Part shown: in pieces, positions 3,375 to 60,047 of the stretch
Layout of the letters: the number at the start of each line of letters is the position of its first letter
Position numbering within the stretch: position 1 is the stretch's first letter
Source: a virus
Taxonomy: Duplodnaviria; Caudoviricetes
Strand: one strand, 5' to 3'
IMG/VR virus record: IMGVR_UViG_3300005326_000040
Span: 256,001 to 320,000 of that record
DNA length: 64,000 nucleotides
Program-made: the position numbers and the translations under genes
The notes under the pieces: model-generated
Seen by the model: the letters and a program-made list of their open reading frames with translations, nothing else
Database searches by the model: none
Told to the model about the DNA's origin: nothing

Positions 3375-3394
3375 GATATATATCGAAATAATAG
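3375..3394. promoter_or_regulatory. GATATATATC palindrome overlapping a minus-strand candidate late promoter (ctatta-N6-tat)
   Basis: Palindrome at 3375-3384 and motif at 3380-3394 on the minus strand, between divergent genes. Confidence 0.45.
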
Positions 3395-3401
3395 GTGTAA
3401 T

Positions 3402-3821
3402 ATGTTTAGAAGGTCAGATTTAGCAGCAAAAGATAGAGAAGAGGTTTCTATTCAGAAGAAGGCAAGCATCAATGTTGTAGACGATCCCTATTTGAATGAA
3501 ACGGGATATGGATACAAGTCTATGACAGTAGAAGCGGCTTTAGAGAGAGCTAGAGAGCAGGCATATACGTTTGGCTATCGCGATGATGATATTGGGGATG
3601 GAGATTTTGAATCCCAGGATATGATCAAGCAGATGGCTGATGTTATTTCTAAAGTTTTATGGGGTTACGATAGTGCTAAAGTAGAAATGGCTAATGAAAG
3701 TATGCTTCGGCGCGCAGAAGAATTTCGTTATCAAGGTGTTCAGTCAGGCTCTTTGGCTCCTAAGAAGATAGCGAAGCGGGGACTTTTGAAGGAAGAGCCG
3801 AGGATTATTCGAAAACGTTAG
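3402..3821 (+). CDS. hypothetical protein, probable virion component
   Basis: 139-aa ORF with SD AGGT; MFRRS start and IQKKAS motif. Confidence 0.65.
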   Translation: MFRRSDLAAKDREEVSIQKKASINVVDDPYLNETGYGYKSMTVEAALERAREQAYTFGYRDDDIGDGDFESQDMIKQMADVISKVLWGYDSAKVEMANESMLRRAEEFRYQGVQSGSLAPKKIAKRGLLKEEPRIIRKR

Positions 3822-4483
3822 GCTTTTTTATTCTTAGCAAATTTTTCAAAACCAAAAACGCTAATTGCGTCAATAGCGGCGAACAATTCCTTTTCTGGTT
3901 TAAGTTGTTCGTCTGAAGGTTCGCTTGTTTCTTCAAGGATTTTAGAGCTATCTTCAGCGGTTGGTTCTTGTAAGTCTTCTAGTCTTTTATCTTCTTCTTC
4001 CTCTGTATCGGTTTCTTTCGCCAACTCAATAAAGTTTCTTATTCGGTCATGATAAGCGCGAATGGTGTTTGCGATTTCCGAATTTGGATCGATGTTTTCG
4101 ACTTTTGCTTTTATTACTTTTGTTTCTTCTTTGTTTCCGGCGTGAGAAAATGTATGAGCATATATTCTAACAGTGTTGCCGAGTATAGAGACGCCAGGAA
4201 TCATATTGGAATGATATATTCCTTCTTTTTGCCCCGTGAGAATGCTTTGAAGGTGTTGTGCTTCTTTGAGAAGACTGAGAAAAGTATTGGTTATGTTAGA
4301 TAGATTCTTTTCATCTATTTGAATTTCTTCTTTACCTGTAGCCCAAAACACAATAATTTTTCCGCTTTTCTTCATATGAATAGCGGGAATTATGTCGTTG
4401 GGAAGCTTTAAGGCGTCCTGCAATGAAACTGTTGCGGTTTTCTTCAAAGAAGCTAAAAGGCTTACTGCTTTACCAATACTCAT
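3818..4483 (-). CDS. hypothetical protein, probable virion component
   Basis: 221-aa ORF with LKKTAT near the N-terminus, an acidic stretch and FEKFAK at the C-terminus. Confidence 0.65.
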   Translation of the reverse strand: MSIGKAVSLLASLKKTATVSLQDALKLPNDIIPAIHMKKSGKIIVFWATGKEEIQIDEKNLSNITNTFLSLLKEAQHLQSILTGQKEGIYHSNMIPGVSILGNTVRIYAHTFSHAGNKEETKVIKAKVENIDPNSEIANTIRAYHDRIRNFIELAKETDTEEEEDKRLEDLQEPTAEDSSKILEETSEPSDEQLKPEKELFAAIDAISVFGFEKFAKNKKA

Positions 4484-4490
4484 GGGAATA

Positions 4491-4505
4491 ATTCGAAAAT
4501 ATTGG
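4491..4505 (-). promoter_or_regulatory. candidate late promoter (ccaata-N6-aat), possibly giving a leaderless mRNA
   Basis: Motif ends 7 nt before the ATG at 4483; no SD is visible. Confidence 0.35.
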
Positions 4506-4529
4506 CTGTCGGGCAGATGGAAAGACTCT

Positions 4530-4535
4530 TATAAT
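4530..4535 (+). promoter_or_regulatory. TATAAT -10 box upstream of dut
   Basis: Exact TATAAT 8 nt before the ATG at 4544; no recognisable -35. Confidence 0.35.
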
Positions 4536-4543
4536 GGTCAGCT

Positions 4544-4978
4544 ATGACAACTATCAAATTTCTTTTAGCACATTCCGAAGCAAAGCTCCCACAATATCAG
4601 GACGTAGGTTGTTCTGGAATGGACGTAAGATCGGTCGAAGATTTGGTTTTGGAGCCTGGAGGAATTGAAATTGTAAAGACTGGACTGAAGCCTGTTATTC
4701 CTGTTGGTCTTGAAATTCAAGTGCGTTCTCGTTCAGGAATGGCGGCGAAACATGGAGTTGCCGTTTTGAATTCTCCAGGAACTATTGATGCCTCCTACAG
4801 AGGAGAAATTGGTGTAATTCTGATTAATCATGGACCAGCACCTTATACTATTAGGGTTGGAGATAGAATTGCGCAGTTAGTTGTAGCTAAGGTGGAAATG
4901 GTTCAAGTAGAAGCAACCGATTCATTGCCTGAAACAACTCGCGGTGAAGGTGGTTTTGGCAGCACAGGAACGAAGTAA
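4544..4978 (+). CDS. dut: trimeric dUTPase
   Basis: All five motifs present: SGMDV, RSRSGMA, GTIDASYRGEI, GDRIAQLV, RGEGGFGSTG. Confidence 0.97.
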   Translation: MTTIKFLLAHSEAKLPQYQDVGCSGMDVRSVEDLVLEPGGIEIVKTGLKPVIPVGLEIQVRSRSGMAAKHGVAVLNSPGTIDASYRGEIGVILINHGPAPYTIRVGDRIAQLVVAKVEMVQVEATDSLPETTRGEGGFGSTGTK

Positions 4979-4979
4979 T

Positions 4980-5975
4980 ATGACGACGAAATCAAAAATT
5001 CTTACTGGTATTTCTGTTACTTTTCTTATTTTGATTTTGATGTATATTATCAAGCTTCAATATGATGCTTTAGAACGGCAGAGACAAATCGAGCAAACTA
5101 TTATCAAATTTCAACAGCTTGAAGGCGGAATTGCTCGAATTGAAAGTCGCTTGGTAAAAGATAAAAGCGATCTTGAGTCTAGGTTACAAGACCTCGGCAT
5201 TAACGTCAAGGTAATTCAAGATGACTTGGATGCTTATGGCGCAAAACTAGAAAGCGTTTCAGTTGTTGTGGGTAGAACCGAAGGGTATATTCAAACAGCA
5301 ATTCCTAGTGACTGGCAGGAGCCATCAGAGGATCCTAAGGTTCCAGAGCAAAAAGATGAGACTTGTACCAGCAAGTATGGGTATTGTACTCATGCACAAG
5401 GACTCAATTTATATGAACAAGGGTTGGATGGCTCCAAGATTCCTTTTGGTGGCGTAAAGTTTAATGCAGCCGTCCAAAACCCTTGGGACATATCTGTGTT
5501 TCCGCGCAAATATTATTCTGTCATGACCATGGGCAAGGATAAATCAGGAAAAGTTATTGCTCATTCTCAAATGATGATCGAAGATAAAGATGGTAAGAAA
5601 TATAAGATTGGCGTGGATGAATCTTCATTTATCGAGACGGTTGCTGAAACGTCTCGAATGTATTGGTGGAACCCAAGGATTACCGCTGGATATAGTTTGG
5701 GTGTAGATTCGGACGTAAATATTGCTTCTAGTGTTGGTGCGCAATTTTTTGCATCCGCATATGCCTCTAATCGTTCCAGACCCAAATGGATGTTTATTGG
5801 GTTAGGCGCCGGTTATGATATCTCTTCGAGAAAACCAATTTTGACATTTTCTCCTTTCATGTATAATGTGTTTCCGTACAGCCAACTTGTGCAGAATCTT
5901 TATGTTGGACCGACGGTGGCTCTTTCTACTGCTGGTGCTGTAAGTGGAAATGCAACTGTTTCCGTATTATTCTGA
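4980..5975 (+). CDS. membrane protein: N-terminal TM anchor, coiled coil, C-terminal amphipathic beta-strands ending in Phe
   Basis: TM segment ILTGISVTFLILILMYII; heptad region; alternating strands (ITAGYSLGV, FIGLGAGYD, LYVGPTVAL); ends SVLF. Start set at the ATG after the dut stop. Confidence 0.7.
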   Translation: MTTKSKILTGISVTFLILILMYIIKLQYDALERQRQIEQTIIKFQQLEGGIARIESRLVKDKSDLESRLQDLGINVKVIQDDLDAYGAKLESVSVVVGRTEGYIQTAIPSDWQEPSEDPKVPEQKDETCTSKYGYCTHAQGLNLYEQGLDGSKIPFGGVKFNAAVQNPWDISVFPRKYYSVMTMGKDKSGKVIAHSQMMIEDKDGKKYKIGVDESSFIETVAETSRMYWWNPRITAGYSLGVDSDVNIASSVGAQFFASAYASNRSRPKWMFIGLGAGYDISSRKPILTFSPFMYNVFPYSQLVQNLYVGPTVALSTAGAVSGNATVSVLF

Positions 5976-5988
5976 TTGTAGGTGAAAA

Positions 5989-6285
5989 ATGAATTACGTT
6001 TTATTTTTTTCTGGTGTAAGTTTGGGGATGCTTTTAGGGATATACATATTTTGGATGTTTACTGAGAGAAAGATAGAAGAAAAGAAAGAGCCGAATGCTA
6101 AAGTTCGAAAAATTTTGCGGCAGCTTGACGCTATTTATAGTAAAATATGGGAAGTGGATGACACGGTAAGAAGCGCGTCAAAAACATTATCCTCTGAGGA
6201 GTATAACTATATCTCCACGCGCGTAAGTTTTGTTAGAAGAGCTATTTTAGATAGTATAGACCAAATTGAAAAGAGAGAAAAATGA
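5989..6285 (+). CDS. small single-TM protein (paralog of the next gene)
   Basis: N-terminal hydrophobic helix followed by KEPNAKVRKILRQLD. Confidence 0.7.
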   Translation: MNYVLFFSGVSLGMLLGIYIFWMFTERKIEEKKEPNAKVRKILRQLDAIYSKIWEVDDTVRSASKTLSSEEYNYISTRVSFVRRAILDSIDQIEKREK

Positions 6286-6596
6286 TTATTGCAATTTTTT
6301 GTATTGGGTGTATTGTTGGCGTATTTGCCACAATTATGATGTCAATATTTATTGAAGCCCGAAAAAAAGCAATACAAAAAGAGCCCAACCCATATGTTCG
6401 CAAGGCTTTGCGAGAATTAGATTCTTCTTTGAGCAAAGTGAATGCAGCTTACAACGTCATATTAAATTGTAGTTTTGGAGCAAAGTATTATCAGCGCAAT
6501 GATATGCTTGAACAATTGGATTCCTGTTACAAAAATATTCAGGATACAATCAAGCAAATTGAAGAGAGGGAAAACGAGGAAAAGAATGACGCTTGA
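6282..6596 (+). CDS. small single-TM protein (paralog of the previous gene)
   Basis: N-terminal hydrophobic helix followed by KEPNPYVRKALRELD; ATGA overlap. Confidence 0.7.
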   Translation: MIIAIFCIGCIVGVFATIMMSIFIEARKKAIQKEPNPYVRKALRELDSSLSKVNAAYNVILNCSFGAKYYQRNDMLEQLDSCYKNIQDTIKQIEERENEEKNDA

Positions 6597-6616
6597 TGGT
6601 ATGCCTTGTTGTCGGT

Positions 6617-6631
6617 CTAATACTTTGGTAT
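6617..6631 (+). promoter_or_regulatory. candidate late promoter ctaata-N6-tat
   Basis: CTAATA CTTTGG TAT, followed by SD GGAGG and ATG 17 nt after the motif. Confidence 0.5.
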
Positions 6632-6648
6632 ATCTTATGGAGGGCACC

Positions 6649-6813
6649 ATGCGGCAACTTGAACTAGAGTTAACAATCGAGGACGTTCCGCAAGTAGAGG
6701 AGAAGAAAGATGACGAAGTCAACAGAGGATGTTGTGTACTTAACGTTTGTGACTCTAATGACAATTTCATTGTGGACATCCTTGTTACACATGATATTAA
6801 CTTAAAAGATTAA
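6649..6813 (+). CDS. small acidic hypothetical protein (54 aa)
   Basis: Strong SD GGAGGG before the ATG at 6649 (MRQLELEL...); the track start at 6475 overlaps the previous gene. Confidence 0.6.
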   Translation: MRQLELELTIEDVPQVEEKKDDEVNRGCCVLNVCDSNDNFIVDILVTHDINLKD

Positions 6814-6814
6814 G

Positions 6815-7039
6815 ATGATTTGCGCCGAATGTAACAAGTTAGCGAAAAATTCAAAACCGCATATTTGTAAGCGGTGTTCTCGTATGGTTTCTTTTAAAGA
6901 ACAACAAATTTGTGAAGTCTGTTCTGTTACAACTCAAAGCTGTTGTGTATGTGGTCGCAATATGGTTACAAAAGGAAGTGAAGACCCTAACCATCCATTT
7001 TTTAGTTCGTCGGGTCGATGTAAGTCCTGTGGTAATTAA
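6815..7039 (+). CDS. small Cys-rich (multi-CxxC) zinc-binding protein
   Basis: CAEC, CKRC, CEVC, CCVC and CKSC in 74 aa. Confidence 0.75.
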   Translation: MICAECNKLAKNSKPHICKRCSRMVSFKEQQICEVCSVTTQSCCVCGRNMVTKGSEDPNHPFFSSSGRCKSCGN

Positions 7040-7062
7040 GAATTGTCGTAGGAGAATTGACT

Positions 7063-7605
7063 ATGGACAGCTGGATAGATAAATTAGCTAAGTGGTTTTT
7101 TCCTGATGTGCCAATGCGTTGGGCTTATGTAATTGTTAATGACGATGTAATGCATTGTCTTTTAACCAAGAGAGTTCCTGAAAATCGAGGGTATTACATT
7201 ACAGACGAAGACTTATGGTATTGTGACGAACTTAGACGTTGCGTTGGTAAAAATGAAAAGTTTTTTGAAACACAATCCGAAGCAATAGAAGTTCTGATAC
7301 AACAACTTGAATCAAAAATAAATCGCGCTCAACAGTTTATTTTGGAAAAAACTGATTATGTTGAGTTTTTGAAGCGCAGACTAAAGCTTGCAAAAGCAAA
7401 TGAAGCCTTAGAATTGCTTGAGAAGAAAACTGGTGAAGAGGTAGCAGAGCGGTTAGGTAAGTATCTTATACTAGAGAACGCTGTTAAGCAACTTAGGCTT
7501 ATTAACTCTTCTCAAGAAACTCATGAGGAGGATTCGATTCTTGAAGAAATGGATATTCTGTGGAATGAGATGACTGAAGAAGAAAGAGCTAAAGCAAATA
7601 GATGA
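7063..7605 (+). CDS. hypothetical protein with coiled coil
   Basis: SD AGGAG 8 nt before the ATG at 7063; ATGA overlap with def. Confidence 0.7.
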   Translation: MDSWIDKLAKWFFPDVPMRWAYVIVNDDVMHCLLTKRVPENRGYYITDEDLWYCDELRRCVGKNEKFFETQSEAIEVLIQQLESKINRAQQFILEKTDYVEFLKRRLKLAKANEALELLEKKTGEEVAERLGKYLILENAVKQLRLINSSQETHEEDSILEEMDILWNEMTEEERAKANR

Positions 7606-8129
7606 TTATTACAGATACATCTTTTCTTCAAGATATTTGCGATCCAATTTCCTCATCAGAGGAAGAGCGCGATATTATTTCTAAACTTGAGCAAGAACTT
7701 GAAATTTCTAATAAGGCCGGATCTTTTGGGATAGGTTTGGCTGCGCCTCAAATTGGAATTAAAAAACGAGCGGCTATTGTTCGAATTGGCCCAGCGGCAA
7801 CAATCAATCTTATCAACTCTGTAATTGTAGATAAGAATGGCTCGGCGTTTTCACAAGAATCATGCTTATCTCTTCCTACAAAATCTGTTGTCGTGCAGAG
7901 AAGTTCTGATATCTTAATTGAAAACAACAGCTTCGGTATCAAGCAAAAATTTGCGGCATATGGGCTCGCTGCCATCTGTATTCAGCATGAAATGGACCAT
8001 TGGGATGGAATTTTGATTGTTGATAGGGCAATAGAAAAGCATACAGAGAGCGTTAGCGCCACGCCTAACTTACCTTGTCCATGTGGGAGTGGTAAAAAGG
8101 CAAGAAAATGTTGCAAAAAGGTGAAATAA
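7602..8129 (+). CDS. def: peptide deformylase with C-terminal SEC-C zinc motif
   Basis: PDF motifs GIGLAAPQIG, ESCLS and HEMDH; C-terminal PNLPCPCGSGKKARKCC. Confidence 0.95.
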   Translation: MIITDTSFLQDICDPISSSEEERDIISKLEQELEISNKAGSFGIGLAAPQIGIKKRAAIVRIGPAATINLINSVIVDKNGSAFSQESCLSLPTKSVVVQRSSDILIENNSFGIKQKFAAYGLAAICIQHEMDHWDGILIVDRAIEKHTESVSATPNLPCPCGSGKKARKCCKKVK

Positions 8130-8371
8130 TGTCAATGACCGTGAAGGAAATGTCGGAGTTTATCAAAATGCAAGAAACCGTGATGGGTTTATTGCTAAGA
8201 GTAAGTGCTCTTGAATTGATCTTAAAGGAAAAAGGCGTTCTTACGGACGAACTTTTTTCAGTTAAAATCAAAGAAATTGGTGAAACAGTCGTCACCAGAA
8301 CCAAAGAGATGATGGCTGCTAAAGAACTTGAAGCAAAGAATAATGAGCAGGTTGGAGCAACTAACATCTAA
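8129..8371 (+). CDS. hypothetical protein
   Basis: TAATG-coupled 80-aa ORF, helical. Confidence 0.65.
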   Translation: MSMTVKEMSEFIKMQETVMGLLLRVSALELILKEKGVLTDELFSVKIKEIGETVVTRTKEMMAAKELEAKNNEQVGATNI

Positions 8372-8387
8372 AGAGTAACAGGATAAA

Positions 8388-8672
8388 ATGGAACAAGTAG
8401 AATTTGCAGGATTGGTTGTTTTGAAATTCTATTCGGATACGTGCGCTCCTTGTAAGCGTATTGTAACCATTATTAAAAAAATGCAGGAAGAATTTCAGTC
8501 AGTTAAGATATATAATGTCGATATTGAAGAAGATTATCAGCTAGCTAAAAGGTTTAGCGTCAAGTCTGTTCCTACTCTTGTTTTCTTGAATGGAGAAAAA
8601 GAACAAAGCAGAATTGACGGACTGGCAAATACTGAAACAATTCGAAAATCATTCAAGGCACTGGTAGGTTAA
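8388..8672 (+). CDS. trxA: thioredoxin
   Basis: FYSDTCAPCK active site, cis-Pro loop VKSVPTL, 94 aa. Confidence 0.88.
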   Translation: MEQVEFAGLVVLKFYSDTCAPCKRIVTIIKKMQEEFQSVKIYNVDIEEDYQLAKRFSVKSVPTLVFLNGEKEQSRIDGLANTETIRKSFKALVG

Positions 8673-8686
8673 GGAGAAATTAGATT

Positions 8687-9286
8687 ATGACAACAAAGAA
8701 AGTTCCCGCGAAGAAGACTGTAAAAAAGACCGCAAAGAAGGCAACAACCCCTAAGAAGGCAGCTTCAAAGAAGCCTTCAGTAAAGAAGGCTACGAAACAG
8801 TCAGGCACAGACCTTAAGAAGGTGGCTAAGGTTGTCAAGGCTATAAAGGCGGCTACTGCACCAAAGAAGCCGCGCGTTAGCCCTCCTGTTGATGTTGAGC
8901 TTCTAGCGGATACAGGCGAAGTAAATTATGTAGCGCCAAAGAAGGCGACAGCAGAAGACTTGCTTAATCCAGACCAGCGGAAGTGGTGGGATGATATCAA
9001 GGGTCATCGTCTTGATCTTTTTGGTTTACCAGAGCAGTACATTGGGGCTTTTGCTTCGCCTCTTAACTTAGATTCGAAGGCTCTTTATTTGACAGTCAAA
9101 GCTCCAGCAGCTGTTCCTGCAATTGAAGAGTTTGTTGCGGGTTATACGATGGTAGATAGGCAGACTAGGGTACGTGTTCCAAAGTATACTATGAAGATGA
9201 GCAACAAGTATATTGTTATCAAGCCAGCCAAGGGAAGCATTCAGAAGGTTGGAAATAAGATGATGTTTGTTGCTGATGAGGATTGA
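8687..9286 (+). CDS. protein with histone H1-like K/A/T-rich N-terminus
   Basis: First about 60 aa are KKTA/KKAT/KKAA repeats, followed by a globular region. Confidence 0.7.
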   Translation: MTTKKVPAKKTVKKTAKKATTPKKAASKKPSVKKATKQSGTDLKKVAKVVKAIKAATAPKKPRVSPPVDVELLADTGEVNYVAPKKATAEDLLNPDQRKWWDDIKGHRLDLFGLPEQYIGAFASPLNLDSKALYLTVKAPAAVPAIEEFVAGYTMVDRQTRVRVPKYTMKMSNKYIVIKPAKGSIQKVGNKMMFVADED

Positions 9287-9295
9287 ATTAAGCAT

Positions 9296-9318
9296 TCTGT
9301 TAGAAACTTAACAGATTT
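9296..9318 (+). terminator. weak hairpin / possible terminator
   Basis: TCTGTTA-gaaact-TAACAGA followed by TTT, just after the H1-like gene. Confidence 0.3.
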
Positions 9319-9339
9319 GGAATAAACTCTTGAGATAAA

Positions 9340-9741
9340 ATGCAAGATGATGGGAGCCTGTTGTATCTTATACTTGGTTGCTGGGGACGAAACGATGAAG
9401 GATTTGTAAGCTGTCCTTCTGTCTCCAATCCCATCCTACATGTTCACAAAGACCTCCAAGATTATCAAGACATTTCTAGATACCTGAAATCAGTTGGTTT
9501 AGCTGATAAACGCGTTTTAGATTATAATGCGGTGCGCAATATTGTTTATACTATTCAAAGAGACTATCGAATGAAAGGACCGCAATCCTTTTGGACTGAA
9601 CGTCAATTTAGAATAATAGAAAACTTTACGCTTGTTCATAAACCATGTGGGATTTATCTTGCCTTAGACTTTATTCTTCCTGCCCAAGTGCCAAAACCGA
9701 AAGAAGAGCGCAGCGTAGTAATTATGCCTACGAAATTCTAA
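9340..9741 (+). CDS. hypothetical protein
   Basis: 133-aa ORF filling the gap; no motif recognised. Confidence 0.65.
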   Translation: MQDDGSLLYLILGCWGRNDEGFVSCPSVSNPILHVHKDLQDYQDISRYLKSVGLADKRVLDYNAVRNIVYTIQRDYRMKGPQSFWTERQFRIIENFTLVHKPCGIYLALDFILPAQVPKPKEERSVVIMPTKF

Positions 9742-9754
9742 AACTCTAAAGCAA

Positions 9755-9779
9755 CCAATAATCTCGAATCAATATACAT
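9755..9779 (+). promoter_or_regulatory. candidate late promoter (two overlapping matches)
   Basis: ccaata-N6-aat at 9755-9769 and cgaatc-N6-cat at 9765-9779; SD GGAG; ATG 14 nt later. Confidence 0.45.
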
Positions 9780-9793
9780 TAATTGGAGTTAAA

Positions 9794-12142: not shown

Positions 12143-12143
12143 C

Positions 12144-12737
12144 TTATCCCCCTTCGGTTCCAGTTAATCTTTGTTTCAGTAAGTATACATGTTCCTCGTG
12201 CTTACTGGCGATACTCATGATCATATCATCAACGCCAAGAGTTAGACTTCCGTCTTCTTTCAGAGCGTTGTACACTTCTTTTGCGAGGTCAAGGAAGGCT
12301 TCTTCCGCAATTAAGGAACGTTTGGCTAGGCCAGCGGCGCCGTTAGCTTCAATTTTGTTGATATCATCAACGAAAGCCATGGTAGCTTGGCAATGGGACG
12401 CTAACGAAATAAAAGAAAGACCGTAGACTCCAATTGTTTTTTCTGCAACAGTATCGATATGTTCTGTTACAGCAGAATATAGTCTATCGTAGAGTAGATG
12501 GTCGCCATAATATGTGTTGCTTTTTGTAGTCCAATGGGCAACTTGATGAATAATAGCTAGTCCTCTTAGAACAGAAGCCATAGTGGCTAATCGTGCGCCT
12601 GCATCATCCTTGTTTTGAGGCTCTTGTCTATCTTCGGTGTTTACGTCATTATCTTCGTCTTCATCTTTTATTTCATCTAATTCTTCTGAGTCAATTTTTT
12701 TTTCGAATTCTTGGGCGAGTTTATAAAGTCTATCCAT
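12144..12737 (-). CDS. Dps/ferritin-like protein with acidic N-terminal extension
   Basis: HQVAHW, YGDHLLYDRLY, HIDTVAEK and HEEHVYLL match Dps-type ferroxidase helices; SD AGGAG. Confidence 0.85.
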   Translation of the reverse strand: MDRLYKLAQEFEKKIDSEELDEIKDEDEDNDVNTEDRQEPQNKDDAGARLATMASVLRGLAIIHQVAHWTTKSNTYYGDHLLYDRLYSAVTEHIDTVAEKTIGVYGLSFISLASHCQATMAFVDDINKIEANGAAGLAKRSLIAEEAFLDLAKEVYNALKEDGSLTLGVDDMIMSIASKHEEHVYLLKQRLTGTEGG

Positions 12738-12781
12738 AATTTCTCCTGTCCTTGAATATAGTACAAATTATTGGTTGTCTA

Positions 12782-12810
12782 GCGATACAACGAATATCGC
12801 GCTATATAAT
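12782..12810 (+). promoter_or_regulatory. divergent promoter region: inverted repeat GCGATA-N7-TATCGC plus cgaata-N6-tat and TATATAAT
   Basis: Read directly from the sequence; SD AAGGTG and the ATG at 12822 follow. Confidence 0.5.
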
Positions 12811-12821
12811 AAGGTGAACCT

Positions 12822-13427: not shown

Positions 13428-13433
13428 GGAAAA

Positions 13434-13964: not shown

Positions 13965-13994
13965 TCATACTATTTCGTCGAGTTGACGCTTGGG

Positions 13995-14017
13995 TTACTG
14001 ATATTATTCCTCAGTAA
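13995..14017 (+). promoter_or_regulatory. hairpin overlapping the start codon of the primase zinc-finger gene
   Basis: TTACTGA-tattattcc-TCAGTAA; the last A is the A of the ATG at 14017. Confidence 0.35.
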
Positions 14018-14655: not shown

Positions 14656-14657
14656 GA

Positions 14658-18675: not shown

Positions 18676-18689
18676 CGCAGTAGTGGCGG

Positions 18690-18704
18690 CTAATAATTCC
18701 ATAT
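18690..18704 (+). promoter_or_regulatory. candidate late promoter ctaata-N6-tat
   Basis: CTAATA ATTCCA TAT; SD AAGGA; ATG 15 nt later. Confidence 0.5.
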
Positions 18705-18719
18705 CCTAACAAAGGAATT

Positions 18720-19688: not shown

Positions 19689-19719
19689 TTCGCTTTTTCA
19701 AGAAAGAAAGCTGGAAAAT

Positions 19720-22486: not shown

Positions 22487-22515
22487 TTGACTTCAGTTAC
22501 CTAAGCTTGTATGGT
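22487..22515 (+). promoter_or_regulatory. sigma70-type promoter of the dnaE operon, with an overlapping palindrome
   Basis: TTGACT (22487-92), 17-nt spacer, TATGGT (22510-15); the -35 lies inside an imperfect inverted repeat at 22472-22499. Confidence 0.6.
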
Positions 22516-26873: not shown

Positions 26874-26883
26874 GATATATATA
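26874..26883 (+). promoter_or_regulatory. GATATATATA box
   Basis: Same class as the boxes at 1936 and 3375; 34 nt upstream of the ATG at 26918. Confidence 0.35.
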
Positions 26884-33205: not shown

Positions 33206-34079
33206 CCAGAATAATTCTAAGACAGCCGCAGCGCTTGCTAAAGAAGCGACTGTGAAACGCAAACAACGATTCAAGCACCTTGATGCTATCATCACCGTAG
33301 CTTCTAATTGGTTGTACAATCAGTCGCCAGCCAAAGACACCCTAGCTTATCTCGACAAACGCATGTCAAGAGAGCAGCAATCCATTCTTAAATTCGGATA
33401 TTTCCCCCGAAATTGGGAGGATGTCTTGTTGTTTATGGACGACTTGTCTGAAGTTTTGCCTAAAGAAGATCCCAAAAATGTCCTTGAAGAGAATGGGATT
33501 ATTGAGCTTCGGGCAAGAAAGCCAAAGAATTTCTACTATAATAATCCTCTTTTGATTCCTTTTTACGACGTTTACGGTAATCCTGTATCGATAGTGGGAA
33601 GAACACTTCTTTCCGAACAGGAACTGAAACAAACAAAAATCAGCAAATACAAGAACTTACCTTTCCAAAAAAGTAAACATTTATTTGGATTGAATTTATC
33701 TTGGAGGAAGATCGTCGAACTTGATTATGTTCTTATAGTAGAAGGGCAGTTTGATTTTATCACGAGTTTCTTGTATGGGTATGAGAACTCTGTGGCGCTT
33801 TGTGGTAGCAAGGTAATTCTGGAACAACTACTATTATTGAAACGTTATACTAAGAATTTCTATTTTATTTTAGACAATGATGAAGCAGGCGAAAAAGGCT
33901 GGAACGCAATAAATAACAAAGCCAGCAAATATGATATCTTTTGTCACCGGATTGAATTAACGCAGGGTAAGGATGTAGATGAGTGCTTGCGAAGCGGAAA
34001 TACAATTGTATTTCCGAAACCTCATTTACTTAGGATATATAAACACGCATTAACTAAACAGGAGATGGATGCCGGATAG
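33174..34079 (+). CDS. dnaG: DnaG primase catalytic core (TOPRIM), lacking the N-terminal zinc finger
   Basis: YL..R...KFGYFP, LLIPFYD..G..V..GR, KYKN, IVEGQFD, LDNDEAG, KDVDE; start uncertain. Confidence 0.9.
   Translation: MSSASPTENPSQNNSKTAAALAKEATVKRKQRFKHLDAIITVASNWLYNQSPAKDTLAYLDKRMSREQQSILKFGYFPRNWEDVLLFMDDLSEVLPKEDPKNVLEENGIIELRARKPKNFYYNNPLLIPFYDVYGNPVSIVGRTLLSEQELKQTKISKYKNLPFQKSKHLFGLNLSWRKIVELDYVLIVEGQFDFITSFLYGYENSVALCGSKVILEQLLLLKRYTKNFYFILDNDEAGEKGWNAINNKASKYDIFCHRIELTQGKDVDECLRSGNTIVFPKPHLLRIYKHALTKQEMDAG
34034..34043 (+). promoter_or_regulatory. GATATATAAA box upstream of the sigma-4/HTH gene
   Basis: Inside the 3' end of dnaG, 25 nt before the ATG at 34069 (SD CAGGAG). Confidence 0.3.
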
Positions 34080-34515
34080 AACTAGAAACCGCTCGGGAGG
34101 ATATCAGTTTAATCTTATCGAAGTCGCAGTCTCACCTTTTATCTTAGGCGACCTTTCCGCCGCCCAAGGTATGGCGTATCGTTTTCAACCATTTGAGGAG
34201 AGTGAAATGCTTCTTGATCTAAAGGAGGAGCTAAAGGTACATCTTTGGCGAATTATTGAAACGGGGCTTACAAAACGTCAGCGCGAAGTAGTGAAACTCT
34301 CAATGGATGGTTATACTCAAAATGAAATTGCCAAACAACTTGGTATCAACCAAACAAGTGTTCATAAAGTCCTTCGTGGAAATATTGATTATCGTATGCA
34401 ACGTCGTCGGTATGGCGGAGCATTTAAAAAAATACTAAAACTAGCACAAGCAGACATTGAGATTCAAAAGATACTTACCGAAATAAAAGACCTCTACGAA
34501 TGTTTGGAACTCTAA
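34069..34515 (+). CDS. sigma-70 region-4/LuxR-type HTH transcription factor
   Basis: LTKRQREVVKLSMDGYTQNEIAKQLGINQTSVHKVL; located at the replication/structural module junction. Confidence 0.82.
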   Translation: MPDRTRNRSGGYQFNLIEVAVSPFILGDLSAAQGMAYRFQPFEESEMLLDLKEELKVHLWRIIETGLTKRQREVVKLSMDGYTQNEIAKQLGINQTSVHKVLRGNIDYRMQRRRYGGAFKKILKLAQADIEIQKILTEIKDLYECLEL

Positions 34516-41488: not shown

Positions 41489-41503
41489 CGAATAATAGAG
41501 CAT
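41489..41503 (+). promoter_or_regulatory. candidate late promoter cgaata-N6-cat
   Basis: CGAATA ATAGAG CAT directly after a stop codon. Confidence 0.45.
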
Positions 41504-41537
41504 CATCTGTAGATCAGTCATTTTCTATGGTGTGGTA

Positions 41538-43131: not shown

Positions 43132-43146
43132 TTAATGTAGCATTAT
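43132..43146 (+). promoter_or_regulatory. candidate late promoter ttaatg-N6-tat
   Basis: 15 nt upstream of the TerL ATG; a weaker match. Confidence 0.35.
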
Positions 43147-43161
43147 TTTGGCATTTTAAGT

Positions 43162-46834: not shown

Positions 46835-46849
46835 CTAATAAAGAAGTAT
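46835..46849 (+). promoter_or_regulatory. candidate late promoter ctaata-N6-tat(aaat)
   Basis: CTAATA AAGAAG TATAAAT. Confidence 0.5.
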
Positions 46850-52715: not shown

Positions 52716-52730
52716 CTAATATTCTGACAT
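52716..52730 (+). promoter_or_regulatory. candidate late promoter ctaata-N6-cat
   Basis: CTAATA TTCTGA CAT; SD AGAGG; ATG 16 nt later. Confidence 0.55.
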
Positions 52731-52746: not shown

Positions 52747-55700
52747 ATGAGTATATTTAAACGTGGTGAAGCTCTTCAGTTCTCTACATCTGATATAAAA
52801 CCTACAGACGCCATAGAAAACGATCCATTAGTAATGGAACGTTTCCGAAAAATGGCGTCTTCGCTGAAAAATAAAATTGCGCCTAAAGCGAATGATTTTT
52901 TATATTTTTCGGCTATCATGATGCATGCAGCTGAGAGATCTTTGTATGATGACAAGGGCAATCTCAAAGTAATTAATGGACGGCCCGTTGAAGCACATTG
53001 GGAAGTCAGCGATAAAGGTTCATGGAAGTGGGTATGTTCTGACCCAAACCTCCGACCTTATAGAAACGCTAACAGAGATATTTTTCCTGAACTAGAGCTT
53101 AAGAAAGCTTACAAGAAATGGGTTGGAAAGCCTCTTTGTAAAGACCATCAATCAAGCACGATTGAAGGCGTTCGCGGTCTAATTCTAGATACATATTATG
53201 ATGAAAAAGCAAAAAACGTTATAGCATTATGCGCTATTGACCGCGTAAATTATGGTGACTTAGCTAGAAATATCGAAACTGGTATTGCTAATTCAGTTTC
53301 CATGGGAACGGCAGTTGGATGTTCGATTTGTTCTGAGTGTGGAAACGTAGCTAAGACTGAGACTGAGTATTGTCCTCATGTTCGGTCAAGAATTGCTTAT
53401 GGAGAGATTAACGTTGACCTGTCTCCCATCGAGTTAAGCATTGTTGTTAATGGCGCAGACCCATTAGCGAGAGTAAGAACAATCATTGCTGCTACAAATC
53501 AATTTGAAAATACACTCAAAAAGAGTGCTGGAGCTGGTACAACTTTAGATCAATTGAATGCTCTTAAAGATGAGTTTTTCAAGCTTGCTGGTAGGATTCA
53601 AGAACTCGAAAAAGAAATTACAGTTCCAGATGACAATAATTTCGCATTAAAGGCAGTGGCATCTCTAGATATTCATGATGATGCCTCAAAACAAATTCAA
53701 GAAGAGTATATCAATGGGTTGAGTCTTATTAAGACTAAGATGTCAAACATTGAGACGATGTTTCAAAAACTTGCTAACAATAAGTACAATACGGAGGAAT
53801 TAATGGGGTCAGATACTAAAATTGCCAAAGGGTTTTACCAGGGAACAGAGGAACCGACCCCTGGACGCCCACAGTACGAAAAAGAAGAAGCCGACAAAAT
53901 TCGTGACAACGAGGATCGCCAAGTAAAGAATATCGCTGATCTAGGCCCCGTTGACGGAATGTTCCCTGGTGATCTTGAGAAAAAGCGTATGCTTGCTCGC
54001 GCTGCTGTTGAAGAGCGTCGTGTAAAGCGCGCAGCCCTTGTTGAAAAAGCAAAGCTTGCTTATATGCAGGGCACAACTGAGCCTGCCAAGAATGGCAAAA
54101 CTACTTATACACCAGATCCACTAGGTGATAAGGCTCGTGAACAAGATCGTTTCTTGCAGAGCCCGACTGAGTTCAAGGGTGATGCGGCTCCAGGCGACGT
54201 TGAGAAGAAGAAGAAGCTTCTACGCGCTGATCTCAAGGCTCGTTTTACTAAGGCTGCAAAGCCAAACGGCCAAGAAGACACAGCAAATCATCGCTGGGAT
54301 ATTCTAGCAGACAACAAGGTTGTATTTTCTGCAACACTTAATGAGCTAACTGGTGGTCGTCGTTCTCTTTATGACTCAGTAAAAACTGCTGAGTTCGCAA
54401 AGGGAATGCTTCGTGCTATCAAAGAGGGTGGAGTTGAGAAGGCTGTATCTATTTACAAGTCTGCTCAGATGGAAATGGGCGCTGACCCCATGGGCGCTAT
54501 GCCTCCTGCTATGCCTGCCCCCGCTGCTGCTGGTCCAGTTCCCGGTGATATGATGGGCGGAATGGGCGCTCCTGCTGATGGCGGCGCTACTCTAGAAGCC
54601 GTTCCGGAAACAGTTGCTGACCCCGTCGAGCGTGGCAAGATGTCGCTAGAAGTTCTTGAGAAGAACATCGACACAATGACCACAAACCTTCGTGAGCTTT
54701 CCACCGATATCAAAGGCGGTTATGACACACTAGAGAGCCAGAGTGGACAGTTCGGCGGCGACGCTGCTGCCCCACTTGCTGCTCCTGCTAATGCAGTTAC
54801 TGCAAGTCTAAATTCACTACGACGCGGCGCAACAGGCCCAGAAGCCACAGGCGCTCTTCGTAATATTCAGATTGTACTAAATGCGGGTCTAAAAGAAGCT
54901 TTCAAGACTGTTCTTGCTGAGATCGAAGAAAGCGCTGATGAGCTTGATACACTCAAGGCCACAATCAGCATGCCCGGAATCGATGATGTTCATCAGGAGT
55001 TTGTTCAGAATATCGCTGACAGCGCCATTACAGAAGCAAATGAGATCGTTAGCAAAGCTAATGCTCTTCGTCTTGCCTTTGTAAATTATGCTCGCGGTAC
55101 ATATGGTCTTGAGAAAAAGGCTGCCGTTGAGAATCGTATGCTCAAACTTGCTGCTGCAAAGAAAGCTAAGAGCAAGAAAGAAAAAGAAGAAGAAGATAAG
55201 AAAGCTAAGGAAGCAAAAGAAAAAGGCAAATGCAACAGCAAACCTGCTGGTAAGCAGCCAGTTCCTCCGCAGAAAACACCAGCGGCTCCCGCTGCCGGAA
55301 TGAAGGTAAAGGCTTCTGAAGATGATGATGATGTAACCACACTAGAGGGTAAACGAATGCTTAGAGAAAAACTTGCATCCAAAGCTCTTCAAATGAGCGA
55401 AATGCTTAACAAAGCCCATCCAGGCGGCAGCGTTACTATCGGTGATTTGGACACTAAAACTCAGGAAGCCGTAGTCGAGGACCTTTCTGATGTTCATGAC
55501 GCTATGGAAAACGCCGCAACATCTACTCCTACCGCCAGCGACAAAACAAAGCGCGCAGCCAAACGCATTGATGACCTAATCAAAGCTGGGCGCGTTGCTT
55601 CTGGCGAACTCGATGACCTCGTCAAGCACGGCTTGGACAAGGATGCAGTATCCTATTGGAAGAAGTATTATGGTCAGGTCGAAGGCGGCAGTGAGTTCGC

Positions 55701-56067
55701 AAGCGAACTAGTCTCCGATTATGACAAGGAGAAGAGGGCTGCTCTTGATATCGAACAGTACAAGGTCAAGCTCGCTCGTGCTTATGACATGGCTCACCGG
55801 ATGGCTACCGCAGGTATCGTTCCAAATACCGCAGACACCATTCAGAAGGAAGCAGAGAAGATTGTCAAGTGGAATGACGATGCTTATGAGTCGATGGAGC
55901 GCGTAGTTGCCCATCGTAGACCCGAACTCCAGAAGGAAGCTTCTATGAGTATTCAGAACGGTCTCGCTCTCGATAGTAATATCGCACAGGGCGCACCTGC
56001 TGACACTACTCTTGTTGCAGAAATCACACAGGCTCTTATGGGGTCTAAACTAGGACGCCGGTTCTAA
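52747..56067 (+). CDS. prohead protease fused to a long scaffold/core region
   Basis: N-terminal HK97/herpes-type protease pattern (RNANRDIF, PLCKDH His, RGLILD, SVSMG Ser, CSIC..C...C.H); about 800 aa of helical and low-complexity scaffold-like sequence; located downstream of the portal. Confidence 0.8.
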   Translation: MSIFKRGEALQFSTSDIKPTDAIENDPLVMERFRKMASSLKNKIAPKANDFLYFSAIMMHAAERSLYDDKGNLKVINGRPVEAHWEVSDKGSWKWVCSDPNLRPYRNANRDIFPELELKKAYKKWVGKPLCKDHQSSTIEGVRGLILDTYYDEKAKNVIALCAIDRVNYGDLARNIETGIANSVSMGTAVGCSICSECGNVAKTETEYCPHVRSRIAYGEINVDLSPIELSIVVNGADPLARVRTIIAATNQFENTLKKSAGAGTTLDQLNALKDEFFKLAGRIQELEKEITVPDDNNFALKAVASLDIHDDASKQIQEEYINGLSLIKTKMSNIETMFQKLANNKYNTEELMGSDTKIAKGFYQGTEEPTPGRPQYEKEEADKIRDNEDRQVKNIADLGPVDGMFPGDLEKKRMLARAAVEERRVKRAALVEKAKLAYMQGTTEPAKNGKTTYTPDPLGDKAREQDRFLQSPTEFKGDAAPGDVEKKKKLLRADLKARFTKAAKPNGQEDTANHRWDILADNKVVFSATLNELTGGRRSLYDSVKTAEFAKGMLRAIKEGGVEKAVSIYKSAQMEMGADPMGAMPPAMPAPAAAGPVPGDMMGGMGAPADGGATLEAVPETVADPVERGKMSLEVLEKNIDTMTTNLRELSTDIKGGYDTLESQSGQFGGDAAAPLAAPANAVTASLNSLRRGATGPEATGALRNIQIVLNAGLKEAFKTVLAEIEESADELDTLKATISMPGIDDVHQEFVQNIADSAITEANEIVSKANALRLAFVNYARGTYGLEKKAAVENRMLKLAAAKKAKSKKEKEEEDKKAKEAKEKGKCNSKPAGKQPVPPQKTPAAPAAGMKVKASEDDDDVTTLEGKRMLREKLASKALQMSEMLNKAHPGGSVTIGDLDTKTQEAVVEDLSDVHDAMENAATSTPTASDKTKRAAKRIDDLIKAGRVASGELDDLVKHGLDKDAVSYWKKYYGQVEGGSEFASELVSDYDKEKRAALDIEQYKVKLARAYDMAHRMATAGIVPNTADTIQKEAEKIVKWNDDAYESMERVVAHRRPELQKEASMSIQNGLALDSNIAQGAPADTTLVAEITQALMGSKLGRRF

Positions 56068-56097: not shown

Positions 56098-56130
56098 ACG
56101 AAGGCCCCTTGATTGGGGCTTTCGTGTTTA
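56098..56130 (+). terminator. intrinsic terminator
   Basis: ACGAAGGCCCC-ttgatt-GGGGCTTTCGT stem (one G-U pair), then GTTTA. Confidence 0.75.
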
Positions 56131-56208: not shown

Positions 56209-56223
56209 CTAATAAACAGACAT
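56209..56223 (+). promoter_or_regulatory. candidate late promoter ctaata-N6-cat
   Basis: CTAATA AACAGA CAT directly downstream of a terminator. Confidence 0.55.
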
Positions 56224-57063: not shown

Positions 57064-57076
57064 TTGAGAAAGGCGC

Positions 57077-57086
57077 GATATATAAC
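57077..57086 (+). promoter_or_regulatory. GATATATAAC box
   Basis: Intergenic, 39 nt before the ATG at 57126. Confidence 0.3.
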
Positions 57087-57812: not shown

Positions 57813-57815
57813 AAG

Positions 57816-58064
57816 TTATTTCTTCTCATCGGTAGGATAAAGTCTAATCCTTATTCCTTCATTTGTTTCACATTTTACAATGCCGGTATGTGCCCAAAAA
57901 TCACGCTTGTGACATTCTAAAATAATTCCGTCTTTACAATTTGCTCGGCAATTAGTCCAGTTAGCGTCGTCTACTTTATATGCGACAACTAAAGAAAACA
58001 AAATAGAAAGAAAAAATGTTGCTATTCCTAGTCCTTGGAGCACGGAAATCAAAAGTTTTTGCAT
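57816..58064 (-). CDS. small TM-anchored Cys-rich protein (paralog B)
   Basis: TM helix, then NCRANC...C...FW..TG.VKCET.EG.R; start reset to MQKLL. Confidence 0.7.
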   Translation of the reverse strand: MQKLLISVLQGLGIATFFLSILFSLVVAYKVDDANWTNCRANCKDGIILECHKRDFWAHTGIVKCETNEGIRIRLYPTDEKK

Positions 58065-58065
58065 G

Positions 58066-58308
58066 TTATTTTGCCTTATTGAATTCAATCAATCTTACGC
58101 CTTCAACTGTTTCACATCGTACAGTTCCTGACTTCTCCCAAAACCCAATTGTCTGACAGTCTTGAACCATACCAGGACACGCTTGCCTACAGTTATCTTT
58201 GCCTTTGGAACGACCTATTTCGCCTAAAATCACACCTGTAAACACAGCAACAACTACAATTATAATCATACTAGCGATACAATAGTCTGTTATATTATCG
58301 ATACTCAT
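58066..58308 (-). CDS. small TM-anchored Cys-rich protein (paralog A)
   Basis: TM helix, then NCRQAC...C...FW..SG.VRCET.EG.R. Confidence 0.7.
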   Translation of the reverse strand: MSIDNITDYCIASMIIIVVVAVFTGVILGEIGRSKGKDNCRQACPGMVQDCQTIGFWEKSGTVRCETVEGVRLIEFNKAK

Positions 58309-58922
58309 TTTGGCGCAACCTTTTTGAATTCTGTTGAAAGCTGATTGTAAATCGGTTGATACTTGTTCTTATAGTAAGTCCAGTCAACACTACCCGACGA
58401 CATAATTTCGTGAAACAAATCATTGGCTTCTTGATAGTTCACAATCTTGCCTTTGGTAGCTATTTGCCGACCAAACATTAACACGCGAAGAGAATGCCAC
58501 AAGCTCTTGATACCAATATGATATTCTTTGGTGACTTCAAGTTTTTTCTTGGCTTTCACCCATGAGTTGGAAGCCTTATGAGAAATGGAAGCTCGAAGTT
58601 TAGGAACATCCAATAGATATCCTGGTTTCAATCTGTCAGCAATAATATGTTGGGGCGGCAGGAAAAGACATTCTAAAATAGAAATCTCTTGTTCAAGACT
58701 TAAAGCTTCAAATTGTCGCTGCTTATAAAACGAAAAATCAAATTCTCCGGTATAATGTCGGTCAGGATGTCGAAACGTTTGGTCATCTACAACTACAATA
58801 AAATCCTTATCAGAGACTTCCGTCATGGTTCCGTATACTTGAGAACCATAAGCGTACACAGCAGCTACTTGGGATAGGTCAATAGCATGCCCGAGTTGGT
58901 CGAAAATATTGTCTGAGTTCAT
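58305..58922 (-). CDS. pol-beta-superfamily nucleotidyltransferase (RlaP-like)
   Basis: YAYGSQVYG...SDKDF catalytic signature; C-terminal helical KSLWHSLRVL...G segment. Confidence 0.8.
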   Translation of the reverse strand: MNSDNIFDQLGHAIDLSQVAAVYAYGSQVYGTMTEVSDKDFIVVVDDQTFRHPDRHYTGEFDFSFYKQRQFEALSLEQEISILECLFLPPQHIIADRLKPGYLLDVPKLRASISHKASNSWVKAKKKLEVTKEYHIGIKSLWHSLRVLMFGRQIATKGKIVNYQEANDLFHEIMSSGSVDWTYYKNKYQPIYNQLSTEFKKVAPK

Positions 58923-58930
58923 TGATTTTG

Positions 58931-59941
58931 CTAGTATTCTAAAATTTGTTTTGGCGCGGTCATTTGAAATTCCGTAAGATTTCGTGCGCCCATAAACGAA
59001 AAACTAGACTGAATTCCATCTATAATTCCATCCAATGTTTTTTGAATAGGCCCGGAGGCAGGAATTAATTTTGAAACGCCTTCAATGTGCCTAACATGAT
59101 TGTCTTCTTTGGACACAACTTGTTTTGCTACAATAGAAGCATTCCCCCAATAATCCTTGAATTTTTGATTATCAACCATAACTGTTCTGCCATAACTTTC
59201 GTCGCAGGCAGCAAACATTTTCCCGACCATTACCATATTGCCCCAAATCATACATTTGGCAATATCCGAAGCGTGTTCAATAGAACCATCTAGGCAAAGA
59301 AGAGTATCCCAATCATTGGTATCGTCTCGATAAGTTTTTGCTACATGAAGACAGTGAACTCCAACCCCTGTAGCAAATCTAGTCGAACAGACGCTTCCAA
59401 AACTGTTTCCAATTTTGATGATATGGGCTCCTCGATCTCGCAGGTATTTAATTCCATCTGTGGAAGAAACATTTCCCGCCATGATGGTAAGTTTCGGGTG
59501 GGTGTCTCGGATATACTTTAGGATATCTCCTACCAGCTTGTGATGCCCATGATTTACATCGACAATTACGTTTTTTGTTCCTTGGTCAACCAGCCAATCA
59601 ACAAATTCATAATCTTCTTTTTGAACGCCAATGGAAGGGTAAAATCTTGAAAGTTCTTCTCTGTTTCTTCGGTTCTTCAAAACTCGAAGAAGCGTTTGAT
59701 TTCTTTCTTCCTGGGTTCTAAAAAATCGATGATAGCTGGCGGCGGCACCTTCTACTAAAAGTTTATCTACCAATTCTTCGGTGCAAATAGAATGCATATT
59801 TGCGTTAATTACAGGAATATAGAGATTGGTCAAAACCTTTCCGTTCCCATCAACCAATAAGGAGGAAATGTCTACCCCAGAGGAACGGGATTCAATCTCA
59901 GAATATGCAGGTATTAAAGTGAACGAATCAAATGTCAGCAT
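58931..59941 (-). CDS. guaC: GMP reductase (IMPDH/GMPR family, no CBS domain)
   Basis: PVINANM (the ANM variant is typical of GMPR), DVNHGH, AGNV, KIGNSFGSVCSTR..TGVG with catalytic Cys, LDG, DIAK, YWGNAS, IEG, SFMGA. Confidence 0.8.
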   Translation of the reverse strand: MLTFDSFTLIPAYSEIESRSSGVDISSLLVDGNGKVLTNLYIPVINANMHSICTEELVDKLLVEGAAASYHRFFRTQEERNQTLLRVLKNRRNREELSRFYPSIGVQKEDYEFVDWLVDQGTKNVIVDVNHGHHKLVGDILKYIRDTHPKLTIMAGNVSSTDGIKYLRDRGAHIIKIGNSFGSVCSTRFATGVGVHCLHVAKTYRDDTNDWDTLLCLDGSIEHASDIAKCMIWGNMVMVGKMFAACDESYGRTVMVDNQKFKDYWGNASIVAKQVVSKEDNHVRHIEGVSKLIPASGPIQKTLDGIIDGIQSSFSFMGARNLTEFQMTAPKQILEY

Positions 59942-60002
59942 GGCTTTTCTTTATGCTGGCGGAGCAAATTGCTCGACAAATGTTAGCATAAAAAGCAAGC
60001 CA
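59941..60002 (-). promoter_or_regulatory. 62-nt structured leader covering the guaC translation start
   Basis: Nested inverted repeats TGGCTT/AAGCCA, TTTATGCT/AGCATAAA and GAGCA/TGCTC; the outer stem includes the A of the ATG. Confidence 0.5.
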
Positions 60003-60015
60003 TTTTAGAAATAAA

Positions 60016-60047
60016 CTAATGATATAGCATCTAGAAGAGATATATCT
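60016..60047. promoter_or_regulatory. candidate late promoter ctaatg-N6-cat (+) and palindrome AGATATATCT
   Basis: Motif at 60016-60030; palindrome at 60038-60047; divergent intergenic region. Confidence 0.45.

Follow-up and report, generated by a model that had tools for sequence, protein, structure and literature searches.

A bipartite motif, AATA-N6-YAT, was found close to start codons in the genome of a huge phage, and its sequence pattern indicates that it is a real, clade-conserved and promoter-like element. It was studied in a window of 64,000 nucleotides, bases 256001-320000 of the IMG/VR virus contig IMGVR_UViG_3300005326_000040 (338,055 bp; the whole genome is labelled G000), in the remainder of that contig and in related phages. 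A preliminary description of the window had proposed a late-promoter motif, cBAATR-N6-HAT, at 13 sites upstream of genes. This idea was right in kind, but the consensus is to be tightened to AATA-N6-YAT and six of the sites are to be dropped or re-registered.

A start-proximal motif with a fixed spacing

An unbiased scan for dyads of a 4-mer, a gap and a 3-mer was performed on 241 upstream regions of G000. AATA-N6-CAT ranked second, with 15 occurrences against 2.9 expected, and was supported by the overlapping dyads CAAT-N7-CAT, GCAAT-N7-CAT and CTAAT-N7-CAT. When the full scan was run on 200 dinucleotide-preserving shuffles, the family-wise p was ~0.03; the count of AATA-N6-CAT in these shuffles was 2.7 ± 1.5, with a maximum of 8. 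With either pyrimidine allowed, intergenic DNA of the whole genome held 31 sense and 8 antisense copies of AATA-N6-YAT (strand p=1.5e-4), and 102 more were inside genes, which corresponds to 1.43, 0.35 and 0.16 per kb, respectively. The intergenic form YAATA-N6-CAT was found 14 times in sense and once in antisense. Spacing was rigid, as 28 unique sites had a spacer of 6 compared to 6-17 for spacers of 4, 5, 7 and 8. Controls of the same composition (these four spacers, shifted cores and altered 3' trimers) were flat, and the final T of YAT was required for the spacer-6 excess. A core of AACA was not enriched in this genome. Since the flanks of the sites are unrelated, the sites are not copies of a repeat. 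There was no -35-like element at the motif sites, where no position from -45 to -2 exceeded 0.3 bit of information. Counts within genes were uninformative on avoidance of the motif because codon periodicity dominates there.

The fuller form of the motif is k-B-AATA-W-N5-Y-A-T. If the A of YAT is taken as +1, AATA occupies -11 to -8 and BAATAW occupies -12 to -7, a register that matches a sigma70-family -10 element followed by a 6-nt discriminator and a Y(-1)R(+1) start.

All 13 strings in the preliminary description were found where it had placed them, and a bipartite, oriented, start-proximal motif is real for the core AATA-N6-YAT. The consensus as written was too loose. BAATR-N6-HAT occurred 63 times in the window and 61.2 ± 9.3 times in shuffles, which is the level of chance, and four of the 13 sites (34561, 9765 and 43132 on the plus strand and the minus-strand copy at 3380) do not fit cBAATR-N6-HAT. 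The degenerate positions R and H were wrong, as cores of AATG, AATC and ATTA and the 3' variant AAT gave no spacer-6 excess in this genome or in the relatives. Seven sites carry AATA-N6-YAT (52716, 56209, 6617, 18690, 46835, 41489 and 12791). The other six lack it, and their membership (60016, 34561, 43132, 9765, and 3380-3394 and 4491-4505 on the minus strand) is unsupported because AATG-type cores show no class-level enrichment. Motif discovery had been suggested as a check. A MEME-like expectation-maximization (EM) refinement from the seed sites did return cAATA..gCAT, but it was dropped as evidence because shuffled inputs attained a similar information content (9.2-9.8 bits compared to 10.8).

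The motif recurs in related huge phages

The 338,055-bp contig was rated 97% complete by CheckV. It is 41.6% GC and ~93% coding, with genes mostly on the plus strand, and the only sequencing run found to contain it was a groundwater metagenome DNA run, probably its source sample; no RNA run was listed. GenBank held no near-identical phage, and a tblastn search with TerL reached only ~24% identity to Bacillus siphophages. Neither DnaE nor the sigma factor nor the protein of the gene after portal was useful as a single query in scans for relatives. Relatives were taken from an alignment scan of IMG/VR with TerL, which yielded 80 TerL-centred loci of a huge-phage clade and ~1.07 Mb of head-module neighbourhoods. 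The TerL proteins of these loci are 51-70% identical, the contigs are up to 434 kb long and their GC lies between 26 and 49%. One relative was available as a whole genome (G004; 361 kb, 33% GC).

In the ~1.07 Mb, sense copies of AATA-Nx-CAT numbered 9, 16, 18, 17, 23, 10, 43, 14, 3, 11, 18, 16 and 22 for x from 0 to 12. There was a single spike at x=6 (43 compared to 3-23 elsewhere; p=2e-9). After de-duplication, 74 unique spacer-6 sites were within 45 nt of start codons, in comparison to 21-27 at spacers 4, 5, 7 and 8. The sense strand of the whole genome G004 had 48 copies at spacer 6 and 24-34 at other spacers. The flanking positions were also constrained, since the base before AATA was A in only 3 of 58 relative sites (otherwise C, T or G) and the base after it was A or T in 56 of 58.

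Conservation was seen at orthologous positions as well. Upstream of TerL, NATA-N6-YAT ends 5-8 nt before the ATG in 12 of 49 unique start-validated regions, while control spacers gave 0-2; an example from the relatives is ctgAATAtacgatCATtttagtATG. The window's own TerL region aligns to the relatives' nATA-N6-CAT-N6-ATG as gCATTAttttggCATtttaagtATG (43141-43154), and the TTAATG-N6-TAT at 43132 that had been assigned to TerL is thus in the wrong register. Orthologs of the window gene that starts at 41532 have (C/T)ATA-N6-YAT 28-31 nt upstream with a gaggt Shine-Dalgarno (SD) site, as in the window. In three relative loci (L044, L049 and L056), gtGAATA-N6-YAT with unrelated spacers precedes the gene after portal and is the positional counterpart of the window site at 46835.

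Two other conserved elements were observed in the relatives. In one subclade (L044-L050, L035, L037, L056, L054 and L071), a T-run block, ttrgACT..TTTTTTCGTGGAAG, is conserved upstream of TerL, ~20-35 nt before the AATA box. This block may represent the tail of a terminator, an element of UP or -35 type, or shared ancestry alone. The top intergenic dyads of G004 (L111-L129) came from a GC-rich repeated element, GTTGACCGATGGG or CCCATCGGTCAAC-like, with at least 10 copies, which may be the counterpart of the intergenic hairpin family in the window's genome.

Two site architectures

Sites of AATA-N6-YAT fall into two architectures by their distance to the start codon. About 11 sites, including all the strong ones in the window, are 15-46 nt before the start codon with an SD between. 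In the short-leader class, ~13 sites end 3-12 nt before the ATG, which leaves no room for an SD; their consensus is aGCAATA-N6-CAT. The proposed SD between motif and start therefore applies to one sub-class only, and TerL is among the genes that lack it. The preliminary description had also put the end of the motif 14-17 nt before the start codon in seven cases. This distance was recovered for about seven of its sites: 52716, 18690, 12791, 9765, 43132, 6617 (measured to the ATG at 6649) and 3380 on the minus strand.

Genes in the window are named w plus the coordinate of their start (e.g., w52747, w41532). The claim that the motif precedes the protease, TerL and head-module genes was borne out for w41532, TerL, w46880, w52747 and w56263, with the TerL register corrected as above. 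The core gCGAATA-atagag-CAT (41491..41503, plus strand) lies 28 nt before the GTG of w41532. The TerL copy, gCATTA-ttttgg-CAT (43141..43154, plus strand), has one mismatch to the core and lies 7 nt before the ATG of TerL (43162-45054, plus strand) with no SD. Portal (45067-46818) is followed by aCTAATA-aagaag-TAT (46837..46849, plus strand), 30 nt before the ATG of w46880. The core cCTAATA-ttctga-CAT (52718..52730, plus strand) is 16 nt before the ATG of w52747, with the SD gagga between; this gene (52747-56067, plus strand) encodes a 1106-aa protein with an N-terminal prohead-protease domain. After its stop, a terminator-like hairpin (56098..56130, plus strand) has an 11-bp GC-rich stem, a U-rich tail and a fold z of -3.4. 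The core gCTAATA-aacaga-CAT (56211..56223, plus strand) lies 3' of this hairpin and 39 nt before the ATG of w56263, with the SD aggag between. Because the hairpin is terminator-like, the motif at 56209 would start a new unit.

Three further plus-strand cores are located in the first third of the window. gCTAATA-attcca-TAT (18692..18704) is 15 nt before the ATG of w18720, which encodes 322 aa with CHB_HEX_C and Fn3-associated domains. aCGAATA-tcgcgc-TAT (12793..12805) lies between divergent genes and precedes the ATG of w12822 by 16 nt, and its TAT doubles as the start of a TATATAAT string. tCTAATA-ctttgg-TAT (6619..6631) is 17 nt before the ATG at 6649 with the SD ggaggg, and it is truly intergenic once the start of a small open reading frame (ORF) is corrected. 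On the minus strand, the short-leader copy aGCAATA-aatcat-CAT (1116..1129) ends 6 nt before the ATG of an LD-carboxypeptidase gene (171-1109) with no SD. For the proposed CTAATG-N6-CAT (60016..60030, plus strand), which has an AATG core, class membership is unsupported.

Pfam and PHROG searches with 27 downstream genes left nearly all of them unannotated, and the Pfam tail sheath and baseplate models had no match. Outside the head module, the motif precedes cold-shock-domain and LD-carboxypeptidase genes and many ORFan genes. The LD-carboxypeptidase has Peptidase_S66 N- and C-terminal domains (E ~1e-28). The cold-shock-domain protein (G000:328023-328316, plus strand; CSD 2e-19) is directly behind a short-leader copy. 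A 2245-aa ORF (G000:46222-52959, plus strand) without a Pfam match has CTAATA-N6-CAT 46 nt upstream and is probably a giant virion or fibre protein.

A leaderless reading of the short-leader class, in which YAT would begin the -10 box and transcription would start at the ATG, was rejected. At 6-7 nt, the most common distance leaves too little space for a discriminator of 6 nt, and YATnnn shows no conservation at its sixth base.

Genome distribution and other promoter-like classes

The motif is distributed unevenly. AATA-N6-YAT is 5-10x rarer in the 50-200 kb region of G000, with 0.17-0.47 per kb of sense intergenic DNA compared to 2.0-5.0 in 0-50 and 200-338 kb. Only 4 of 28 sites are in the 50-200 kb region, which makes up 62% of the sense intergenic DNA (p=3e-7). 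This region also has sigma70-consensus promoters, tRNAs and the sigma gene. Near-consensus sigma70 promoters (TTGACA-N16-18-TAnnnT with at most two mismatches) cluster at G000:145983-211400, and another is at 334078 on the minus strand. One of them (187779) is just upstream of the phage sigma operon and another (163853) is upstream of a tRNA. The sigma70-consensus sites at 145-212 kb are thus complementary to the regions rich in AATA-N6-YAT.

In the window, the observation that the dnaE operon has a sigma70-type promoter instead of the motif was confirmed. TTGACT-N17-TATGGT (22487..22515, plus strand) is upstream of w22541 and the dnaE operon, which encodes a DnaE-type polymerase (23351-26872); the replication module of the phage is DnaE-type and not T4-type. 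Scans for consensus sigma70 promoters and terminators in window positions 1-20000 were at chance level. ARAGORN called a tRNA-Asn with anticodon ATT (17924-18011, plus strand) inside a 720-aa ORF (15887-18049). An unmodified A34 within a coding region is odd, and this may be a false call.

A third motif class, GATATAT(A/T), had 14 sense and 2 antisense intergenic copies in this genome. In the window it was found at 3375-3384, 26874-26881 and 57077-57084. The first of these is a GATATATA box that reads on both strands of a 36-nt divergent intergenic region. The class is strongly conserved upstream of portal in the relatives (e.g., L049, L070, L088 and L091), where its form is TGATATAT followed by TATAGT ~11 nt on. 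It is separate from AATA-N6-YAT and resembles host-type promoters with an extended -10 (TGnTATATT).

Candidate reading machinery

No multisubunit RNA polymerase (RNAP) of the phage was detected in the contig: PF00562 had no match, PF00623 matched only at E=0.04 and across a stop codon, and no DFDGD-type catalytic motif was present in the six frames. A T7-like RNAP had no Pfam match either, although this is a weak negative since the control gave no match anywhere. A search with Pfam sigma regions 2 and 4 identified one phage sigma70-family factor at G000:188977-189732. This protein of 251 aa has both regions (Sigma70_r2, 47-50 bits; r4, 23.5-26 bits) and matches TIGR02937 (7.8e-21) and phrog_351 (1e-26), and it fits no NCBIfam subfamily. 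Exactly one counterpart was found in each of four out of four large relatives, all of them phrog_351 and 22-25% identical to the 251-aa sigma. The window also encodes a 148-aa protein whose sole domain is a sigma region-4 / LuxR-type helix-turn-helix (HTH) (34069..34515, plus strand), a candidate co-factor. As readers of the motif, this protein and the 251-aa sigma are both candidates only.

Discussion

The best explanation for AATA-N6-YAT is probably that it is a phage-specific -10-type promoter with an initiator, used by host core RNAP together with a phage factor for a middle/late-type regulon. BAATAW would be the -10-type element at about -12 to -7, with no -35 element, and YAT would be the initiator with its A as +1. 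The host core enzyme would be directed to the motif by a phage-encoded factor, most plausibly the conserved 251-aa sigma70-family protein, which is itself behind a sigma70-consensus promoter. The regulon would include genes for packaging and the head, along with others located in 200-338 kb and 0-50 kb. Because the downstream genes are mostly unannotated, and include the cold-shock-domain and LD-carboxypeptidase genes, the term late refers to gene position only.

Several observations weigh against a promoter. The motif is low in information, with seven fixed positions, and about one-third of its exact matches are expected by chance. The whole-genome statistics used crude longest-ORF gene calls. 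Of the 58 sides of divergent intergenic regions, only 3 have the exact motif, and on 44 none of the three motif classes is present. Since divergent regions must contain promoters, either the motif is not what generally drives transcription there or the exact pattern is too insensitive; as evidence on a general promoter role, this occupancy counts as neutral or slightly negative. The TAT form is weakly strand-biased in the relatives (83 sense and 77 antisense), partly because AATA-N6-TATT is its own reverse complement. The 251-aa sigma has region 4, which normally reads a -35 box, yet no -35 box is conserved. For sigma70-type start-site selection, a fixed spacing of 6 nt and a conserved T at +2 would also be unusually tight.

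Another explanation is that the motif acts in RNA, within polycistronic transcripts, and not as a promoter. A phage or host protein could bind AAUA-N6-YAU as an operator or enhancer of translation where genes lack an SD, or an endoribonuclease could cut it to give gene-specific mRNAs. As 21 of 28 sites are in short gaps between co-directional genes, such a signal has to be considered. The lack of enrichment in obligatory promoter slots and the rigid spacing between the halves are also consistent with it, as is the sub-class held at a tight distance from the ATG, where an SD would be, with the distance kept for TerL across relatives. However, the other half of the sites are 15-53 nt from the ATG, at distances that vary and with a normal SD, and one role in translation would not account for all of them. 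Some sites precede lone minus-strand genes or follow the terminator-like hairpin, where a new transcript must begin, and the geometry is that of a -10 box with a Y(-1)R(+1) start. Phage endoribonucleases, where their sites are known, cut at short contiguous motifs or at structures. We therefore consider an RNA-level signal unlikely.

The two halves have centres ~10 bp apart, and this would suit an operator whose regulator touches two major grooves one helical turn apart and switches nearby promoters. The phage encodes stand-alone HTH proteins (the protein at 34069-34515 would be an example of such a regulator), and ATA...TAT is an inverted repeat whose TAT form is raised on both strands in the relatives. 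An operator would not explain the strong strand bias in the own genome, and the CAT form, with 14 sense copies to one, breaks the symmetry. The flanks are also asymmetric, with A avoided at -1 and T not avoided at the mirror position, and no separate -10/-35 pair lies beside the sites. An operator is thus improbable. The possibility that AT-rich upstream DNA, stop codons and start-codon context generate the AATA and YAT spacing as an artefact of composition or selection is more remote still. It would fit with the chance level of the loose consensus, the family-wise p of only ~0.03 in the own genome, the several listed sites that are not class members and an EM refinement that was no better than on shuffles. 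The same-composition controls were not enriched in the same sequences, and the spacer-6 spike was replicated in independent genomes whose GC spans 26-49%, as well as at orthologous genes with unrelated spacers. This replication largely refutes an artefact.

If the motif is a promoter, the short-leader class would have leaders of 5-14 nt without an SD, with TerL among its genes. It is a tentative and rather doubtful proposal that transcription starting at the A of YAT gives SD-less leaders of 8-14 nt to a conserved gene subset, including TerL, across the clade. Neighbouring genes in the same genomes use strong SD sites. If the proposal is true, the phage couples a dedicated sigma-dependent promoter class to near-leaderless translation initiation, which possibly sustains translation of this gene subset once canonical initiation has changed late in infection. 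The class, if real, would be a translational twist.

A phage-specific promoter is a familiar kind of signal, and the AATA-N6-YAT version is not known to have been described before. It would add one further phage-specific promoter consensus and no new principle. To our knowledge, promoters have not been mapped in any huge phage for which metagenomes are the only source. A motif that is found across a clade of 26-49% GC and partitioned opposite to sigma70-consensus promoters could provide a first handle on their transcription programme. It could help to predict transcription units and the middle/late regulon, serve as a marker for annotating related contigs and offer a concrete DNA target for the conserved phage sigma.

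Comparison with known promoter systems

The preliminary description stated that the motif does not resemble sigma70 or T4 late promoters. It does differ from the sigma70 consensus, but the statement was too strong, as BAATAW 7 nt before Y(-1)A(+1) is arranged like a sigma70-family -10 element and also like the single-element promoters of phiEco32 and T4 late genes. A canonical sigma70 promoter (TTGACA 16-18 bp upstream of a TATAAT-like -10) was rejected, since the motif sites have no -35. When compared to the -10 and extended -10 elements (T-12 ATAAT-7; TGn), the motif shares A-11, A-8, W-7, the 6-nt discriminator and Y(-1)R(+1). It differs in that positions -10 and -9 are swapped (AT and not TA) and there is no -35 box and no TG extension. 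Given these differences, host sigma-A alone would not be expected to use the motif.

T4-type late promoters have TATAAATA at -13 to -6, read by gp55 with gp33 and gp45. They are similar to the motif in having an AT-rich -10-region element that ends in AATA, no -35, a start a few bases downstream (putative for the motif) and a role in marking late structural genes. The T4 octamer was rejected as the consensus of the sites; A precedes AATA in few of the relative sites, as given above, and there is no TAT signal upstream. In contrast to T4, the motif is followed by an initiator that is conserved and always 6 nt away, and the sigma found here has regions 2 and 4.

The late promoter of AR9, 5'-A(-11)ACA-(6N)-U-A/G(+1), is read by a non-virion multisubunit RNAP (PMC7598289). 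This enzyme has five subunits and needs deoxyuridine on the template strand (PMC7598289). The likeness to this jumbo phage includes a 4-nt box at -11 to -8 (AAYA), a 6-nt spacer, Y(-1), R(+1) and no -35, in a register that assumes a start at YAT. An AR9-like RNAP was rejected for the present phage, as neither a beta/beta' homolog nor the catalytic motif was found. With the AR9 enzyme absent and the AACA core not enriched, we regard this as a resemblance and not as membership.

In phiEco32, the sigma factor gp36 reads a single element, tAATGTAtA, with no -35 box, and transcription starts 6-8 bp downstream (PMC8948821). Promoters for gp36 are found upstream of the middle and late genes, and the early genes are transcribed from host sigma70 promoters (PMC8948821). 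The present phage differs in having BAATAW with a conserved YAT initiator and a sigma with region 4, which gp36 lacks; phiEco32 is a podovirus and this is an unrelated 338-kb huge phage, for which the start site and sigma dependence are putative. The conserved YAT lies 7-8 nt downstream of the element, which is only suggestive of a start 6-8 bp downstream. Both phages encode their own sigma70-family factor, and both have a single element near -10 that starts with (t)AAT and has no -35 box. On these comparisons, phiEco32 appears to be the closest functional precedent for AATA-N6-YAT.

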